The translations under genes were made by a program, and so were the position numbers. A model generated the notes under the pieces. The model saw nothing but the letters and a program-made list of their open reading frames with translations, ran no database searches and had not been told where the DNA came from. This document shows positions 39,240 through 52,591 of a DNA stretch of 64,000 bases, one piece after another (the stretch's first letter is position 1; each line of letters opens with the position of its first letter). Source of the stretch: Bdellovibrio sp. (GTDB lineage Bacteria; Bdellovibrionota; Bdellovibrionia; Bdellovibrionales; Bdellovibrionaceae); NCBI GenBank assembly GCA_036677065.1, contig JAKFBS010000004.1:576001-640000 (forward strand). Reading direction: 5' to 3'.

Positions 39240-39279
39240 ATCCCTGTATGTGAATGTTCCCACGATCCATCGCGGGAAC
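39240..39279 (-). promoter_or_regulatory. AUGGAU-loop hairpin plus SD GGA: candidate CsrA/RsmA site
   Basis: Minus strand GTTCCCGCG-ATGGAT-CGTGGGAAC, then ACAGGGAT just before the TTG start at 39234. Confidence 0.55.
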
Positions 39280-46491: not shown

Positions 46492-47220
46492 CTAGTAGAT
46501 AATCGCCGTGTTGCCCCAGTCTTCAGTTTTGATCAGGGGCACGCGATGATGTTTCAATCGTTTTAAAACCTCTTCATGGGGATGATTAAATTTGGCCATG
46601 CGTGATTGCACGATGGCCATTTTTATTTGTGGCAGGCCCTTTAAGAGTAAATCGCTCGTGCTGGTGCGGCTGCCGTGATGGCCTAACAGTAAATAATCAA
46701 TTTTGTGTGTTTTAAGCCGATTAACCCAGGTTTTTTCCATCTTCTTAGACGAATCGCCGGGGATTAAAATGTTTTTGTATCTGTACACAAAAGAGCTATC
46801 GTTCTTATTTGAAAAATCACTGGGCTTAAAGACACGCTCTTGGTGTAAGTCATTCGACTTTGCACATAAGGCAATCTTGCGGGTTAAACGCTTTGCGGGA
46901 ATCGACGTGTGATCAAGCTCACTCCAGCAGATTTTCGGAATATATTTAACCAGCATCGAATAATAAGCGTAATGATCTAAATCTGGATGCGATAATCTTA
47001 AAGTGTTTTGTTTGTTTTTGCAGAGCTTTAAAAATAAATTCTGATTTTTTCTCCAGGGGCCGAGTTCGCCGCCAAAATCAAAGTGCCTGCATTCATCAGG
47101 CGTGACGGCAGTGATCCATTGCCCTTGGCCAACGTTCCAGAAAATCACGTATAAATACGATGATTTATTTGCACATAAAGTCGAATGCAGAAATAGCCAA
47201 AAAAATATTAGTTTAGACAT
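46492..47220 (-). CDS. ComEC C-terminal metallo-beta-lactamase domain as a stand-alone gene
   Basis: NVGQG, SHPDLDH, GD and HHGS motifs. Confidence 0.85.
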   Translation of the reverse strand: MSKLIFFWLFLHSTLCANKSSYLYVIFWNVGQGQWITAVTPDECRHFDFGGELGPWRKNQNLFLKLCKNKQNTLRLSHPDLDHYAYYSMLVKYIPKICWSELDHTSIPAKRLTRKIALCAKSNDLHQERVFKPSDFSNKNDSSFVYRYKNILIPGDSSKKMEKTWVNRLKTHKIDYLLLGHHGSRTSTSDLLLKGLPQIKMAIVQSRMAKFNHPHEEVLKRLKHHRVPLIKTEDWGNTAIIY

Positions 47221-48104
47221 GTCACTGGCTTTCTTGCGAAATAATTTAAAAATAAGTGAAGCGCGATAATTAACACCCAGTTGATAAAAATCATTTTTTC
47301 GCTATCGTAAGGGCGAAAAATCACGGTGAGTTCAAGTTTAGATAAAATCATATTCAAACTAACTATTAAAAAATCGAATATTGAACCTAAAAATGGAAAT
47401 AGAAATACAGCTAAAGCGAGCGGAAATAAAACGTACTCTAAAAATTTAGTGAAAACGGTGGATACTCCGATTGATGCTGGTTGTGGAATTCCGATGAAAT
47501 TAAATGTCGCCAGATATTGAAAATAGAAAATAGAATTTTTAAAAAATGAATTCGCTTTGGCGAAAAAATAACTGATCACACTTAAAGTCAAAGCTGCAAT
47601 CCAGCTCATTTGCAGCGATAAAGAATTGATCCACGCTGGCGAAAGAATTAAACAAATTAAACCCGACACTAAAACCAGGTTTTCGGTTTTCCATTTTAAA
47701 TTTATTTTTTCAATAACTGCTAAAATGAGCAGCGCTATAAAACTGCGCATGATAGGTGGATTGAAATTGCAAACGCCACAGTACAAAAATAAGAGCGAAA
47801 ATGTAGCTACTTTGTTACATAATAAATATAAAATTATTTTTCGCAAAATCATGAGGTGAGATGCCGACACAACAAATAAATGAATTAACCCCGACGCGAT
47901 TAATAAATTCGACTGCGCAGGGTCAGAAAAGTTTTTTCCGCACACTAAAGCTTGTAAGGATTCAAAAGATCTTACATGGTCGGACGCTGCTTCAACACAA
48001 GCTGAATGGAGTTGTGAACAAAATCCGATCAAAAAATCAATAACCGAAAAGCGGATGGTGTGTGATATTAACACTATGTAGATTAAAATATAGACGAAGT
48101 TCAT
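47208..48104 (-). CDS. comEC: ComEC/Rec2 competence (channel) domain
   Basis: SGLIHLFVVSASH, PPIMRS and SLQMSW motifs. Confidence 0.85.
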   Translation of the reverse strand: MNFVYILIYIVLISHTIRFSVIDFLIGFCSQLHSACVEAASDHVRSFESLQALVCGKNFSDPAQSNLLIASGLIHLFVVSASHLMILRKIILYLLCNKVATFSLLFLYCGVCNFNPPIMRSFIALLILAVIEKINLKWKTENLVLVSGLICLILSPAWINSLSLQMSWIAALTLSVISYFFAKANSFFKNSIFYFQYLATFNFIGIPQPASIGVSTVFTKFLEYVLFPLALAVFLFPFLGSIFDFLIVSLNMILSKLELTVIFRPYDSEKMIFINWVLIIALHLFLNYFARKPVTCLN

Positions 48105-48357
48105 GCGTTCTATGCAATTGCAAAGCGCACAAATTTAAGATTTCTGAAAAATTTTTTAAGATTTATTGGCTTTTTTAGAAATGATTAATTTAATCAAATA
48201 CTTAACTGAGGTTGAATTATAAGCAAATCGCTGAAAACACTGATAATCAACGGGTCCAAAGTCCAGAAACATGAGTTAATAACATTTTATGTGGATAAGT
48301 CGGATAACTTTATTGAATTAGGTTCAAGAGTTGAGTTTAATTATATCAGGGGGCGAC

Positions 48358-48798
48358 ATGAGATTTTCACTTCTTATCACTTTACTATTTTTTTCATTTT
48401 TTAGCTGCCAGTCAATGAGCAGGAATTCTAAGTCAACAATTTCGGCGCCTAAAAAAACTGTGTCTACTAAATCGCCAGCGACAAAAGTTGCAACAAAAGT
48501 AGATACAGTTAAGCAACCTGCTGTAAATCCGGCGTTGGGGCAAAAAAGTATTTACGAAGAGTTAACTGGTAAAAAAGGCGTGTCTGCGAAACAAGCACCA
48601 ACTCGTATTTTAGAAATGGCACGTGATGCGAAATGGAAACGTGATTACGTTACCGCGCTTAAAAGATACAACACGATTATAGTTAAATATCCAAAATCAA
48701 AAGAAGTGCGCCAAGCTTATTTAGATAAAGCAGCCTTGTACCGCGAGATGGGCTTATTGCAACAATCTAAATACAATATGGAGAAGGCTAAAAAATAA
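48358..48798 (+). CDS. Lipoprotein with TPR-like (CpoB/BamD-like) C-terminus
   Basis: Lipobox FFSC; Y..AL..Y..I..KYPKS pattern; SD GGGGG. Confidence 0.7.
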   Translation: MRFSLLITLLFFSFFSCQSMSRNSKSTISAPKKTVSTKSPATKVATKVDTVKQPAVNPALGQKSIYEELTGKKGVSAKQAPTRILEMARDAKWKRDYVTALKRYNTIIVKYPKSKEVRQAYLDKAALYREMGLLQQSKYNMEKAKK

Positions 48799-50357
48799 TG
48801 ATTTGTCGCTTTAGAAAAAGCATCTTTGTAACGGCAGCAGCAATCAGTTTTATTTTTCTTCCAGCCTTGAGCCAGGAAGATCCTGCTGCGCCATCTACGC
48901 CTCCTGCTGCTCCAACAGGTCAAGAGATGCCGGCAAGCCGTCCTAAATATGATATCGAATTAAATAAAGACAGTAGTTCGTTTGTTCCGGATCCAGATTC
49001 GTTAGATCCATTGCCATTAAAAAAAGAATCGTTAAAAGAAGACGATGAACCTGTATTAGATGACATCAAATCGATTCTTAAAACTAAAGCTAAGAAGCCA
49101 AAAGCAGGTGCTGCCAAACCTGGCGATGGTGCGACTGCGGCTCCGGTAAAAAAAGCTAAGAAAAAAGTCGCACGCAAAGCTAAAAAATCTGCGCCGGTTG
49201 TTGATACTTCGAACTTATCGCCAGATGATCCAGATTTGGCTTTAGAGCAAAAATTTAACGATATCTATAATAAGTATAACATCAATCCAACTTCTGACGA
49301 TGTTTGGGGAGCTGCTTCAAGCAAAGCCGCTCAAGTGTACGATGTGCAAAAAGGGGATACGTTATTTACGATCAGCCGTACCCTGTTTGGTGATCCGCAA
49401 TTTTGGCCAAAAATCTGGGCCTTAAACAATGGCGGCATTACAAATCCACATAACATTGCACCCGGAACTAAAATTTATTTCTATCCTGGTGATGGCGGAG
49501 CAGCGCCTTCGATGTCAGTGGGAAGTGAGTCTCCTGAACGTGCGGCATGGGTTGATCCCGATGCGCCAGTTATTCGTGATACGACAACGAAACAAAACAC
49601 CGAATTTAATAAATTAGTTCAAGAAGGTGTTAAGGGTAAAACTGATGTGCAAAATATTCCGCCGAGTTTTCCGCCTTTTTCAGTGAGTGCGAAATATTTT
49701 GCTGCGGCGAAGTCGACAAAATTTTTAATTACTCCAGCCGCTGAAATCGTAGATCGTGATCCGGAAAATCCATTTATTTTGACCTCGTCGATAATCACGA
49801 CTGAATATAAGGTGATGGAAAAAAATGCGAACTCGTTAGTTTGTAAAGATAACCAGTATGTTCCTGCGGTTATTAAAATTGGCAAGAACGCAAAACCAGG
49901 CCGCTACAGTATGTTGGTGCAAGAGAGTTTTAACTTTGGTCAGCTAAAACGCACATACATTTATCGCATTATCGGCGAAGCGGATGTGGGAAGTGATGAA
50001 TCACTTCGTATTTCTCAGTGTATTAAGCCGGTTAATACGGATGTGCTGCTTGTGAGCAGCGAAGATCTTGCTGAAGTAAAACCGCCGAATGAGTTGATTC
50101 CAAATACACGCTCACAAATTATTGAAGGCGTTGAAGTGAATGCCCAACAGTATTATTATGCTCATCAATATGTGATTTTAAACATGAGCCAGTTGCCAGC
50201 GCTTGAAGGTGCTGATTTAAAAGTTTATTCGGCATCAGCTGGTGGCGTTGTCGGAGAAATTCGTATTTTAAAACGCACGGGCACCATGGCTATTGGTTAT
50301 GTGATGAATAACGATGACCTGGTTCAAGTGGGTGATCGCGTGATTATTCCGGAATAG
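48798..50357 (+). CDS. Exported LysM protein (TsaP-like position upstream of dprA)
   Basis: Signal peptide; LysM YDVQKGDTLFTIS...FWPKIWALN...ITNPHNI.PG. Confidence 0.8.
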   Translation: MICRFRKSIFVTAAAISFIFLPALSQEDPAAPSTPPAAPTGQEMPASRPKYDIELNKDSSSFVPDPDSLDPLPLKKESLKEDDEPVLDDIKSILKTKAKKPKAGAAKPGDGATAAPVKKAKKKVARKAKKSAPVVDTSNLSPDDPDLALEQKFNDIYNKYNINPTSDDVWGAASSKAAQVYDVQKGDTLFTISRTLFGDPQFWPKIWALNNGGITNPHNIAPGTKIYFYPGDGGAAPSMSVGSESPERAAWVDPDAPVIRDTTTKQNTEFNKLVQEGVKGKTDVQNIPPSFPPFSVSAKYFAAAKSTKFLITPAAEIVDRDPENPFILTSSIITTEYKVMEKNANSLVCKDNQYVPAVIKIGKNAKPGRYSMLVQESFNFGQLKRTYIYRIIGEADVGSDESLRISQCIKPVNTDVLLVSSEDLAEVKPPNELIPNTRSQIIEGVEVNAQQYYYAHQYVILNMSQLPALEGADLKVYSASAGGVVGEIRILKRTGTMAIGYVMNNDDLVQVGDRVIIPE

Positions 50358-50376
50358 ATATTGTATAAGTACGGTT

Positions 50377-51228
50377 ATGAAAAAAGCCGTACTGTTTAAA
50401 GCCCTGCAAAGACATTTAGGATTCCGCAATCCGGATTCTATCTTACAAATCACACCTGACATTATAAATAAACTGGCGCCGCAAGAATTGATCTTGGCTG
50501 AACGTTATTTGCTAAGTCTAAAAGACAAAGGCATTCAGTTTACTTATCCGGGCGATGTGCTTTATCCGGCAAGTTTTCATCAAATGTTAGAGCCGCCGTT
50601 ATTTTTAGAATACGTCGGTGAGCCCGTGTGGATGCATAAACAAATTCTAGCCATTGTGGGCGCACGAAAAATTCATCCCTTTACTGATCGTTGGCTGCGC
50701 TTTGAGATTCCTTTGTTTTTAGAAGCTAGGCCTGATATAGCCATCGCCAGTGGCGGCGCCATCGGTGTTGATCAGTGTGCGCATACGGTGGCGATTAAAT
50801 CAGATCGCCCGACGATCGTGGTTTTGCCGTGTGGTTTAGAGAATTTGTTTCCGAAAAATTTAAACACATTGAAAAAATTAGTTTTGCAAACGGGTGGATG
50901 TTTTTTATCTGAATTTGAGAGTGATCAGAGTGTGCGAAAACATCTTTTCTTTTTTCGAAACCGTTTAATTACCGCTTTAGCGCAAGTCACGATGGTGGCG
51001 CAGGCTGAAAAAAAGAGTGGAAGTTTTCTTACAGTTCATCATGCACTTCAGAATGGACGCACGATGGTGACGCTTCCCGCGCACCCGATGATGTTTGAGT
51101 TCTCGGGAAACCAGCATTTAATGCGTGAAGGGTGTTTTTATGTGCTTACAAACAAGGATTTGCTTAACTTTTGGGAAGCTGAATGTTGGTCTGGTCGGGG
51201 TTTGACACTAGATATAGACCGCATTTAG
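50377..51228 (+). CDS. dprA: DNA-processing protein DprA
   Basis: AIVGAR, SGGAIGVD..AH and F..RNRLI motifs. Confidence 0.9.
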   Translation: MKKAVLFKALQRHLGFRNPDSILQITPDIINKLAPQELILAERYLLSLKDKGIQFTYPGDVLYPASFHQMLEPPLFLEYVGEPVWMHKQILAIVGARKIHPFTDRWLRFEIPLFLEARPDIAIASGGAIGVDQCAHTVAIKSDRPTIVVLPCGLENLFPKNLNTLKKLVLQTGGCFLSEFESDQSVRKHLFFFRNRLITALAQVTMVAQAEKKSGSFLTVHHALQNGRTMVTLPAHPMMFEFSGNQHLMREGCFYVLTNKDLLNFWEAECWSGRGLTLDIDRI

Positions 51229-51319
51229 TTAAATTGCTTGACCACTGCCACTAGGTCTAGTGATGGCAGTGACTAAGGTCAATATTCGTCAGAAAAGTGA
51301 AATAATCTAAAAAAACCTA

Positions 51320-51349
51320 TTGAGAAAAAAAGAAAGATGCATCTAAAAT
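51320..51349 (+). promoter_or_regulatory. Sigma-70-like promoter for the candidate sRNA
   Basis: TTGAGA-N18-TAAAAT preceded by an A-rich tract. Confidence 0.45.
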
Positions 51350-51355
51350 AATAAT

Positions 51356-51470
51356 AAGGGAGGGGCGATGTGGTCATGGATGACCCTGGTTGTATGGATG
51401 CAGCTACATCGTTCCGTTTTTCTTAAAATTTAAAAATTACAAAGACGAAGTCACTCTTCGTCTTTTTTTT
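51356..51470 (+). ncRNA. Candidate CsrA/RsmA-binding small RNA
   Basis: Two hairpins with AUGGAU loops inside a GGGGCGAUGU/ACAUCGUUCC stem; own promoter and terminator; no ORF. Confidence 0.55.
51441..51470 (+). terminator. Rho-independent terminator
   Basis: AAAGACGAAG-TCACT-CTTCGTCTTT followed by a long T-run; may also stop lptF. Confidence 0.85.
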
Positions 51471-51493
51471 TGTCTTTTTTCTATTCGGGATGC

Positions 51494-52591
51494 TTACGAT
51501 AATTTCTTCTGAATTTGGTTGGCCGACACGACAGCGAAAATAAAATTCGCCACCCATGGGCCCATGTAAGGTGGCAGTCTTTGGCTGCGTGATAAACCTT
51601 CGAAGGCAATATAAACAATAAAGTACCCAACGATAAAAGCCACCGACACCACAAAGCCTGATGATTTGCCTGACCTACGATCGTTGATGACTCCATAACC
51701 AACGCCCACTAACCCGAAAATCAAGCAGGCAGCGGCTAAGGCGAATCTTTTGTGAAACTCAACAGCGAAGCCGACCTTTTCATTATCTTTGAGTGTAGCG
51801 TCGTTTAAGCGTTCTTGTAACTCGTTATAGTTTAATGAGGGCGGAGACTTTTTACGTTCTTCGAATTTAACCGGATCATTTAATAGAACATCGTAAGAAT
51901 CAAATTCAACCACAGTATGAGCTTGGCCGCGACGATGGATCTGGCCTTTGAATAAACGTAATAGCACGCTATGGCCTGGGTTGTCTAAATCAGGAATGAT
52001 ATGACCTTGCGGTGCAATTATAGTTAAAGGCGAACTTGGATTTTTATCATCGTAGATAAATAAATCCTGCAGTAAGCCTTCTTCTGAGTTTACTTTATTG
52101 GCGTAAACCACCATATCAAAAAAGCCTTCTGAGAAAGTGCCCTCTTTGATGCTGGCAGCGGCTTTGGTGTTACCAAGGTGAGTGATTAATAATTCGAATT
52201 GGCGATTTCCCCAAGGTGCAACATAGAATGCAGTTTGCGCTGAGAGGACACTGACCACTAAAGCAAAGGCTACGGCCGGAGCCAGGATTGTGCCGCCGTG
52301 GTAGCCCGCACCTTTAAGGGCGATAATTTCAGAATCAAGAGAAGCGCGGTTGTAAGTCATTAGAATCGCAAAGAGCAGCGACATCGGTAAGATCATGGGT
52401 AAGAATGAAATACTCATATAACCCATGATGTCTAAAATAAATGAAAATTTAATTCCGTGAACGAGCACGAATTCGGTTAGACGAAGGGCTTGAAACATCA
52501 ATAAGATCGATATAAATACCAATACACCTAGGATAAAGGTGGGAACCATTTCAGAGAGTAAATAAAAAAATACGCGGCGTGATTTCCACAT
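51494..52591 (-). CDS. lptF: LPS export ABC permease, LptF/LptG family
   Basis: Six TM helices; DSEIIALK..G, EG.F and EFHKRFAL motifs. Confidence 0.85.
   Translation of the reverse strand: MWKSRRVFFYLLSEMVPTFILGVLVFISILLMFQALRLTEFVLVHGIKFSFILDIMGYMSISFLPMILPMSLLFAILMTYNRASLDSEIIALKGAGYHGGTILAPAVAFALVVSVLSAQTAFYVAPWGNRQFELLITHLGNTKAAASIKEGTFSEGFFDMVVYANKVNSEEGLLQDLFIYDDKNPSSPLTIIAPQGHIIPDLDNPGHSVLLRLFKGQIHRRGQAHTVVEFDSYDVLLNDPVKFEERKKSPPSLNYNELQERLNDATLKDNEKVGFAVEFHKRFALAAACLIFGLVGVGYGVINDRRSGKSSGFVVSVAFIVGYFIVYIAFEGLSRSQRLPPYMGPWVANFIFAVVSANQIQKKLS

Follow-up and report, generated by a model that had tools for sequence, protein, structure and literature searches.

The gap between the convergent genes dprA and lptF of a Bdellovibrio genome lies within a 64,000-nucleotide stretch of DNA (hereafter the window), and an earlier note had proposed that it encodes a minimal CsrA sponge. 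This raises the question of whether a small RNA gene is present in the gap and, if so, whether its product solely soaks up CsrA or plays a further part in regulation. Judged from its sequence and that of its homologues, the gap holds a stand-alone, single-copy small-RNA gene on the + strand (Table 1). In agreement with the ORF-free unit described before, 51229-51480 is overlapped by no open reading frame of 60 or more amino acids.

Table 1. Features of the RNA locus and of its candidate targets; positions refer to the window unless a contig or locus is named
Feature	Position	Strand	Remarks
Two phased A-tracts	51293..51315	+	Directly 5' of the -35 box; UP-element-like, putative function
Sigma70-type promoter	51320..51349	+	-35 TTGAGA 51320-25, 18-nt spacer, -10 TAAAAT 51344-49
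Predicted small RNA gene	51356..51421	+	~66 nt; three-way junction closed by 5'/3' end pairing, then U-tail
5' seed	51356..51371	+	5-6 unpaired bases (third ANGGAN; predicted toehold) and basal stem 5' strand
Basal (outer) stem	51362-71/51406-15	+	From sequence
Hairpin P2	51372..51385	+	A(N)GGAN loop (here ATGGAT); predicted CsrA site 1
Hairpin P3	51388..51405	+	A(N)GGAN loop (here ATGGAT); predicted CsrA site 2
Basal stem 3' strand and U-tail	51406..51421	+	Outer end G-U rich; likely 3' end
Terminator-like hairpin	51441..51465	both	Bidirectional; outside the conserved unit
dprA	50377..51228	+	Upstream neighbour; neighbourhood kept only in families f1 and f4
lptF/G permease	51494..52591	-	Convergent downstream neighbour
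HTH/coiled-coil gene	G000:C1:90606-91097 (-); L384; L235:62-511 (-)
Seed-complementary sites of the same genome			Inside the HTH/coiled-coil gene, early in lexA, early in an AAA/DUF4143 gene, just after divIVA, inside a SnoaL gene

The promoter named in the earlier note (TTGAGA-N18-TAAAAT) is present, and the pattern TTG-N16-19-TANNNT recurs at the correct distance in 89 of 117 homologues compared to 3 of 570 control windows. The A-tracts upstream of it are kept over 72 distinct homologous promoters, and this site scores best in the whole genome (33.1, with the runner-up at 23.5). At the other end, the conserved unit stops at the U-run 51417-21 directly after the outer stem, with a length of ~62-66 nt. 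The strong + strand terminator described earlier exists as a hairpin, but it reads on both strands and lies outside the conserved unit. Among 59 loci inspected by eye over only ~60 nt downstream, just the genome of the window and its closest relatives (G023, G036 and G162) have it, and it may serve the convergent lptF or catch read-through; a script for second terminators returned 0/114 at a threshold that is unvalidated. A GC-rich hairpin without a T-run lies directly after the dprA stop (51243-51271, +), is found in the closest relatives only and may insulate the RNA promoter. The surroundings form a competence-related cluster (46492-51228), with a ComEC-like competence gene and an adjacent hydrolase-like gene on the - strand, and a small lipoprotein-like gene, a LysM protein and dprA on the + strand.

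Transcription from the predicted +1 is hinted at by a homologue (L218), at which high-depth RNA contigs from two studies end exactly at this position. The hint is weak, since the data are assembled contigs that carry no strand and transcription of lptF runs toward this position and could end there. Breaks within 35 nt were seen in four other RNA runs (1531, 1553, 1596 and 1600), and a further two continue across the stretch.

The outer stem and the two ATGGAT-loop hairpins fall where they had been placed, and the reported preference for the + strand is borne out by comparison with shuffled sequences (z = -2.8 to -3.0 on the + strand compared to -1.3 on the - strand). The stems are supported by covariation. 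In an alignment of 42 sequences built from sequence only, 98.8% of the cells pair with 12 two-sided changes, and in a second one of 94 sequences 98.4% pair with 23 two-sided changes, levels that were reached by 0 of 500 shuffles in each case. Divergent members have two-sided change in both hairpins, in model-fitted alignments that lean toward the model. Variation in the basal stem is uneven between its strands: the 5' strand hardly changes, whereas C and U interchange freely in the 3' strand with pairing kept.

At the gathering score, Rfam returned only two tRNAs within the window, and a search by E-value with the region and 10 homologous loci gave chance-level matches only; the RNA matches no Rfam family. 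SRP RNA and 6S RNA were both found elsewhere in the genome and were rejected as identities, as was a Y-RNA, for which no TROVE/Ro60 match was obtained in this 95.8% complete genome. The eight published attack-phase sRNAs measure 98-655 nt (PMC3627812); none lies near Bd2472/dprA and the RNA is not among them. The statement that no such sRNA had been described for the lineage also holds for the openly accessible literature that was searched; a 2026 review mentions neither an sRNA nor CsrA. The RNA gene thus defines a real sRNA family that is apparently undescribed.

The distribution of this family extends well beyond the genus. The unit, promoter included, is matched in 34 of 36 same-genus genomes (BLAST, E<1e-10), and a first covariance model made from 42 sequences matched 140 of 150 family genomes, or 139 after removal of G006, whose 21.8-bit match was dropped because it is a seed-complement site in an HTH-gene orthologue and not the RNA. 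With a second model, the RNA was found in 98 of 150 genomes of the order (E<1e-6, three weaker genomes dropped), which comprise the genome of the window and members of the families f1 (35/36), f2 (21/22), f4 (2/2), f6 (28/37) and f12 (11/26); the eight other families of the order gave 0/26. In a class sample, the one further family gave 0/5, and 120 genomes of the phylum outside the order gave no match better than E=0.001. There is one full copy per genome, and three B. bacteriovorus records (L113, L114 and L138) carry the RNA. Its locus is dprA-lptF in f1 and f4, and unrelated in f2, f6 and f12; by eye, a U-tail and a -35/-10 pair accompany the RNA in nearly all cases. This indicates that the RNA is a free-standing gene.

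Several observations lie at the margins of this distribution. In genus g51 (L070, L073 and L236-L238) the RNA is absent at dprA-lptF and genome-wide, with 0/5 convincing matches at a relaxed threshold, and all five keep csrA, representing a natural loss; genus g64 also gave 0/5 convincing matches. A 91-nt variant (L250:858-948, G237) has an additional inserted hairpin and five GGA motifs in its core. Two weak model matches, L313:272-324 (G228) and L306:313-376 (G195), retain the motif of the basal stem but only one GGA loop and are possibly a paralogue or very divergent members. A record titled Streptomyces griseus (L118) has a typical copy and is probably a mis-binned Bdellovibrionales contig. 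Carriage by phages was rejected, as 25 loose pattern matches all scored 19 bits or less and true members score at least 30.

The hexaloop AUGGAU of the earlier note is correct for this sequence but not fixed in the family. In all 94 distinct sequences, both loops have an invariant A and GGA, a second base that may be any or missing and a varying last base, so that the rule is A(N)GGAN; A(N)GGAX is the recognition rule solved for RsmE (PMC4005645). Loop 1 is partly fixed by the search pattern, and loop 2 is free: all 118 loci retrieved by a pattern without loop 2 have its motif. Among 61 distinct divergent members (76 rows, of which 9 weak or truncated ones were dropped and duplicates merged), the core contains at least two GGA in 50 and one GGA in 11. 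From these loops we infer that CsrA binds both of them. Elsewhere in the same genome, paired ANGGAN hairpins occur only in a flagellin leader; control loop patterns give 0-4 such places, so that the count of two says little, and only the identity of both sites is informative. ANGGAN-loop hairpins occur in the leaders of two tandem flagellin genes, L378:1001-1090 (-) and ~L378:2130-2240 (-) (G000:C11), in one case over the ribosome-binding site, and both leaders are, from their sequence, likely ordinary CsrA targets. Five other flagellin-like genes are without such clear hairpins.

The genome does encode CsrA, in a flgL-csrA-fliW cluster, and T5, R6, Q29 and R44 are kept as read from its sequence. 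Of the 150 genomes of the order, 142 gave a csrA match and 132 a fliW match; among the 98 RNA-bearing ones the counts are 97 and 92, respectively. The one RNA-bearing genome without a csrA match (G196) is also missing fliW, possibly due to an assembly gap. Conversely, 45 of the 142 csrA-positive genomes are without detectable RNA. Little weight can be put on the co-occurrence of RNA and csrA, as almost every genome has csrA and g51 has it without the RNA. The earlier note had furthermore taken a loop at 39256-39279, identical to those of the RNA, as a sign of an sRNA-CsrA circuit over predation genes. This hairpin is real (- strand, z -4.2, single copy, between efp and the next gene), but it is kept in only 2 of 30 efp loci of the genus and, being unconserved, gives no evidence of such a circuit. 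The ATG of its loop opens a 10-codon frame, and the second locus has an ACGGAT loop on a compensated stem.

As the 5' strand of the basal stem is invariant while its intramolecular partner varies between C and U, complements of this strand were searched for. The 11-mer complement of the seed occurs five times besides itself in the genome of the window, compared to 0.059 expected under a fifth-order Markov model, and two 14-mer complements occur compared to ~0.003 expected. All five are on the sense strand of genes. The main predicted target is a small HTH/coiled-coil gene, in which the site lies in a variable linker at ~codons 43-64. This gene is found in 146 of 150 genomes of the order and looks unstudied. 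Its product of ~155 amino acids is unannotated, with an N-terminal HTH-like part and a C-terminal coiled coil, and is weakly DUF3972-like; in G153 the gene is convergent with lon.

A cognate test was carried out on 70 orthologues of the HTH gene, of which 30 were the best matches and 40 were picked for family coverage. With the seed of each genome itself (G076 being scored with the seed of the window), a perfect complement of 11-16 nt is present in 18 of 18 f1 and 2 of 2 f4 genomes. Genus g2 of family f2 has a change in one base of the seed and in the target base opposite it, and 11-12 nt are complementary in 6 of 6 genomes; these sites match the f1 seed over only 5-6 nt and are read in a different frame. 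A different seed base has changed together with its partner in f6, giving at least 11 nt in 7 of 11 genomes with an f6 seed and at most 9 with other seeds, while the remaining four have a complement of 7-8 nt only. In 18 of 19 genomes without the RNA, G090 of g51 included, the complement is at most 8 nt with any of four seeds; the exception, G268, has a site matching the f6 seed and a same-genus relative with the RNA. The site is absent from the HTH gene in the RNA-bearing genomes of f12 (0/8) and of f2 outside g2 (0/6). Allowing for the relatedness of the genomes, the number of independent compensation events is about three and not 70. The f1 site uses rare codons, CCC being 9.5% of Pro and TCC 2.2% of Ser.

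Other genes carry candidate sites in a lineage-variable manner. An f1 site lies in parB of G142 and G003, an f2 site in parB of G203 and G223, and the lon 3' region has a site in G142 and G153; parB and lon of the window's genome have none. These exact-motif scans covered five genomes each, with 0-3 and 0-5 reversed-pattern matches per genome as background and 1-2 unrelated matches in cross-family controls. Single sites are for this reason candidates only, and it is the repeated cognate sites in parB and the HTH gene that are informative. A duplex scan of start-codon regions found the real seed no better than shuffled seeds.

Taken together, the RNA likely carries CsrA to chosen mRNAs rather than solely soaking it up, and is likely a guide in the manner of PasE of enteropathogenic Escherichia coli that brings a FliW-type CsrA to cell-cycle mRNAs. 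In its specific form, a CsrA guide whose 5' seed pairs with target mRNAs to repress them, this is the reading towards which we lean, if only somewhat. A CsrA dimer would bind both loops, and the 5-6 unpaired 5' bases would serve as a toehold from which the seed opens the G-U-rich basal stem. As a perfect duplex forms with the mRNA, the G-U-rich 3' strand would be driven out of the stem, and the dimer, still bound, would reach the message and lead to its repression. The HTH/coiled-coil gene would be the near-universal target in f1 and f4, with parB, the lon and divIVA 3' regions and lexA as lineage-variable candidates, and surplus RNA would titrate CsrA as well. What the sequences establish is the gene, its promoter motif, the covarying structure, the loop rule and the cognate seed-target match, whereas transcription, CsrA binding, pairing in the cell and repression are predictions. 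Counting against the guide are the RNA-bearing f12 and f2 genomes that lack the site in the HTH gene, the f6 genomes with only 7-8 nt, the divergent members with one GGA in the core, the csrA-positive genomes without the RNA, and parB and lon of the window's genome, which have no site. Rivals of the guide stay alive, because no GGA stands at a fixed place beside the sites and the sites lie deep in coding regions.

Both features are in line with the best placed of these rivals, a switchable sponge, in which the closed RNA holds CsrA until an abundant mRNA (that of the HTH gene or parB) opens, refolds or destroys it and CsrA is freed, so that the mRNA regulates the RNA. As a raw count uncorrected for background, 28 of 37 targets have an A(N)GGA within 70 nt of the site, its position varying from target to target, and 9 of 37 have none; the sites are in coding linkers and 3' regions, far from ribosome-binding sites. 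The seed is moreover caged, with only ~5-6 nt unpaired in the predicted fold and the remainder forming the basal stem, and in one co-fold of seed and target the core refolds over loop 1, burying it upon pairing. However, a single minimum-energy co-fold is weak evidence, and several different genes with lineage-variable sites fit a regulator with a target set. This rival is considered unlikely.

It is followed by a conventional antisense sRNA, also unlikely, in which pairing alone causes decay or a translation stall and CsrA stabilises the RNA or speeds annealing in place of the absent Hfq, as for SR1-ahrC in Bacillus (PMC6546359). The long perfect complements of 11-16 nt and this precedent speak for it, as does the result that neither Hfq nor ProQ was found in the genome of the window. 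Against it, two loops of the high-affinity type are kept order-wide, which appears to be more than a chaperone contact would need.

A plain minimal sponge with a purely structural 5' strand, as put forward in the earlier note, is improbable. A stand-alone + strand RNA with two CsrA-type loops is what remains of that proposal; the loop rule agrees with it, and the GGA motifs are 15 nt apart, inside the CsrA bridging range of 10-63 nt given in PMC7652899. Likewise, four small f6 genomes (L379/G230, L380/G242, L382/G233 and G270) keep csrA and the RNA with no match for flagellin or fliW. Two sites, however, offer little capacity, and the invariant 5' strand is left unexplained: its complementary mRNA sites change with the seed across families, which leaves the plain sponge unsupported. 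In three of the four small genomes one RNA loop is worn, and in G242 and G233 csrA has by eye been relocated beside prmA-like and stomatin-like genes, its product keeping R44 and lacking N55, a residue linked to FliW binding. Finally, a small peptide gene, suggested by the resemblance of the 5' strand to a ribosome-binding site plus AUG and by GUG as the sole variant at the AUG position, or a DNA-level element is largely refuted and very improbable, as the frame stops at codon 2 in L063, is shifted by one-base deletions in L077, L118, L125 and L188 and ranges from fewer than 10 to more than 60 codons, and G-U-tolerant covariation with a portable promoter points to RNA.

If the CsrA guide is the correct reading, it would represent an independent, deeply conserved case of RNA-guided CsrA with natural seed-target compensation; within the sources cited here, RNA-guided CsrA is described only in a 2026 E. 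coli preprint (bioRxiv 10.64898/2026.08.12.744399). Reviews treat sRNA antagonists and FliW as separate controls of CsrA and, as far as their accounts go, leave open whether they coexist in one species (PMC7652899; PMC7366521; PMC4682653). With fliW present in 92 of the 98 genomes that have this CsrA-type RNA, and the RNA itself present in records of B. bacteriovorus, this question becomes testable in a tractable organism. The RNA is also a candidate explanation for the levels of ParA and ParB in B. bacteriovorus, which are described as differing from one transcript without an explained cause (PMC10547168), and the finding directs attention to the HTH/coiled-coil gene. CsrA itself has been implicated in predation according to PMC13443453. 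A wider and more doubtful proposal is that, through an order-wide caged-seed guide RNA, the CsrA-FliW switch of the flagellum also acts as a regulator of the cell cycle. CsrA would be directed to the messages of the unstudied DNA-binding regulator and of parB, divIVA, lon and lexA, linking flagellum assembly with chromosome segregation in the attack/growth cycle of the predator and doing the job of Hfq-bound sRNAs in Hfq-less bacteria; we put this forward tentatively, as possible rather than probable.

Among known systems, the fold resembles TwoAYGGAY (RF01731), a proposed CsrA binder that also has two GGA-loop hairpins on a common basal stem (PMC2864571; PMC4333381; bioRxiv 10.64898/2026.09.22.753630). 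In contrast to TwoAYGGAY, loop position 2 is mostly A and not a pyrimidine (58 of 94 in loop 1, 54 of 94 in loop 2), and the RNA has 66 nt compared to a model of 168 positions. The RF01731 covariance model has no match at E<=10 in the genome of the window and none for the region or 10 homologous loci. TwoAYGGAY of Pseudomonadota is described in these sources as multi-copy and repeat-flanked, whereas the RNA is single copy with its own promoter, and a trans seed is not among the features they report.

Like CsrB/CsrC and RsmX/Y/Z, the RNA comes from an sRNA gene of its own and has A(N)GGAN loops on short stems. The CsrB/CsrC and RsmX/Y/Z sponges are described as RNAs of 100-400 nt that contain many sites and whose expression BarA-UvrY drives in Gammaproteobacteria without fliW (PMC7652899; PMC7366521; PMC4682653). 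The Bdellovibrio RNA differs from them in its 2-3 sites, closed ends, seed and co-occurrence with fliW, and none of the Rfam families of the Csr/Rsm sponge kind matches it. SR1 of Bacillus subtilis is a larger, peptide-coding RNA, which shares no structure with the Bdellovibrio RNA. The likeness of the SR1-ahrC-CsrA system is that of a base-pairing, CsrA-binding sRNA in a FliW-containing organism, in which CsrA is reported to promote annealing (PMC6546359).

PasE, as presented in its preprint, measures 56 nt and combines two CsrA sites with a seed at its 5' end (bioRxiv 10.64898/2026.08.12.744399). The Bdellovibrio RNA is similar in size (~66 nt), in its two CsrA-type GGA sites and in a 5' seed complementary to several mRNAs. 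However, the PasE seed is described as single-stranded, whereas that of the Bdellovibrio RNA is mostly caged in the basal stem, and GGA stands at no fixed distance from the target sites, unlike in the PasE-perB model of that preprint. The host has a FliW-type CsrA and Hfq was not found in it, cell-cycle genes are the candidate targets, seed and target show natural compensation, and the family spans five families of the Bdellovibrionales, compared to the E. coli and Shigella from which PasE is reported. Compared by description, PasE would nonetheless be the closest working likeness of the RNA.
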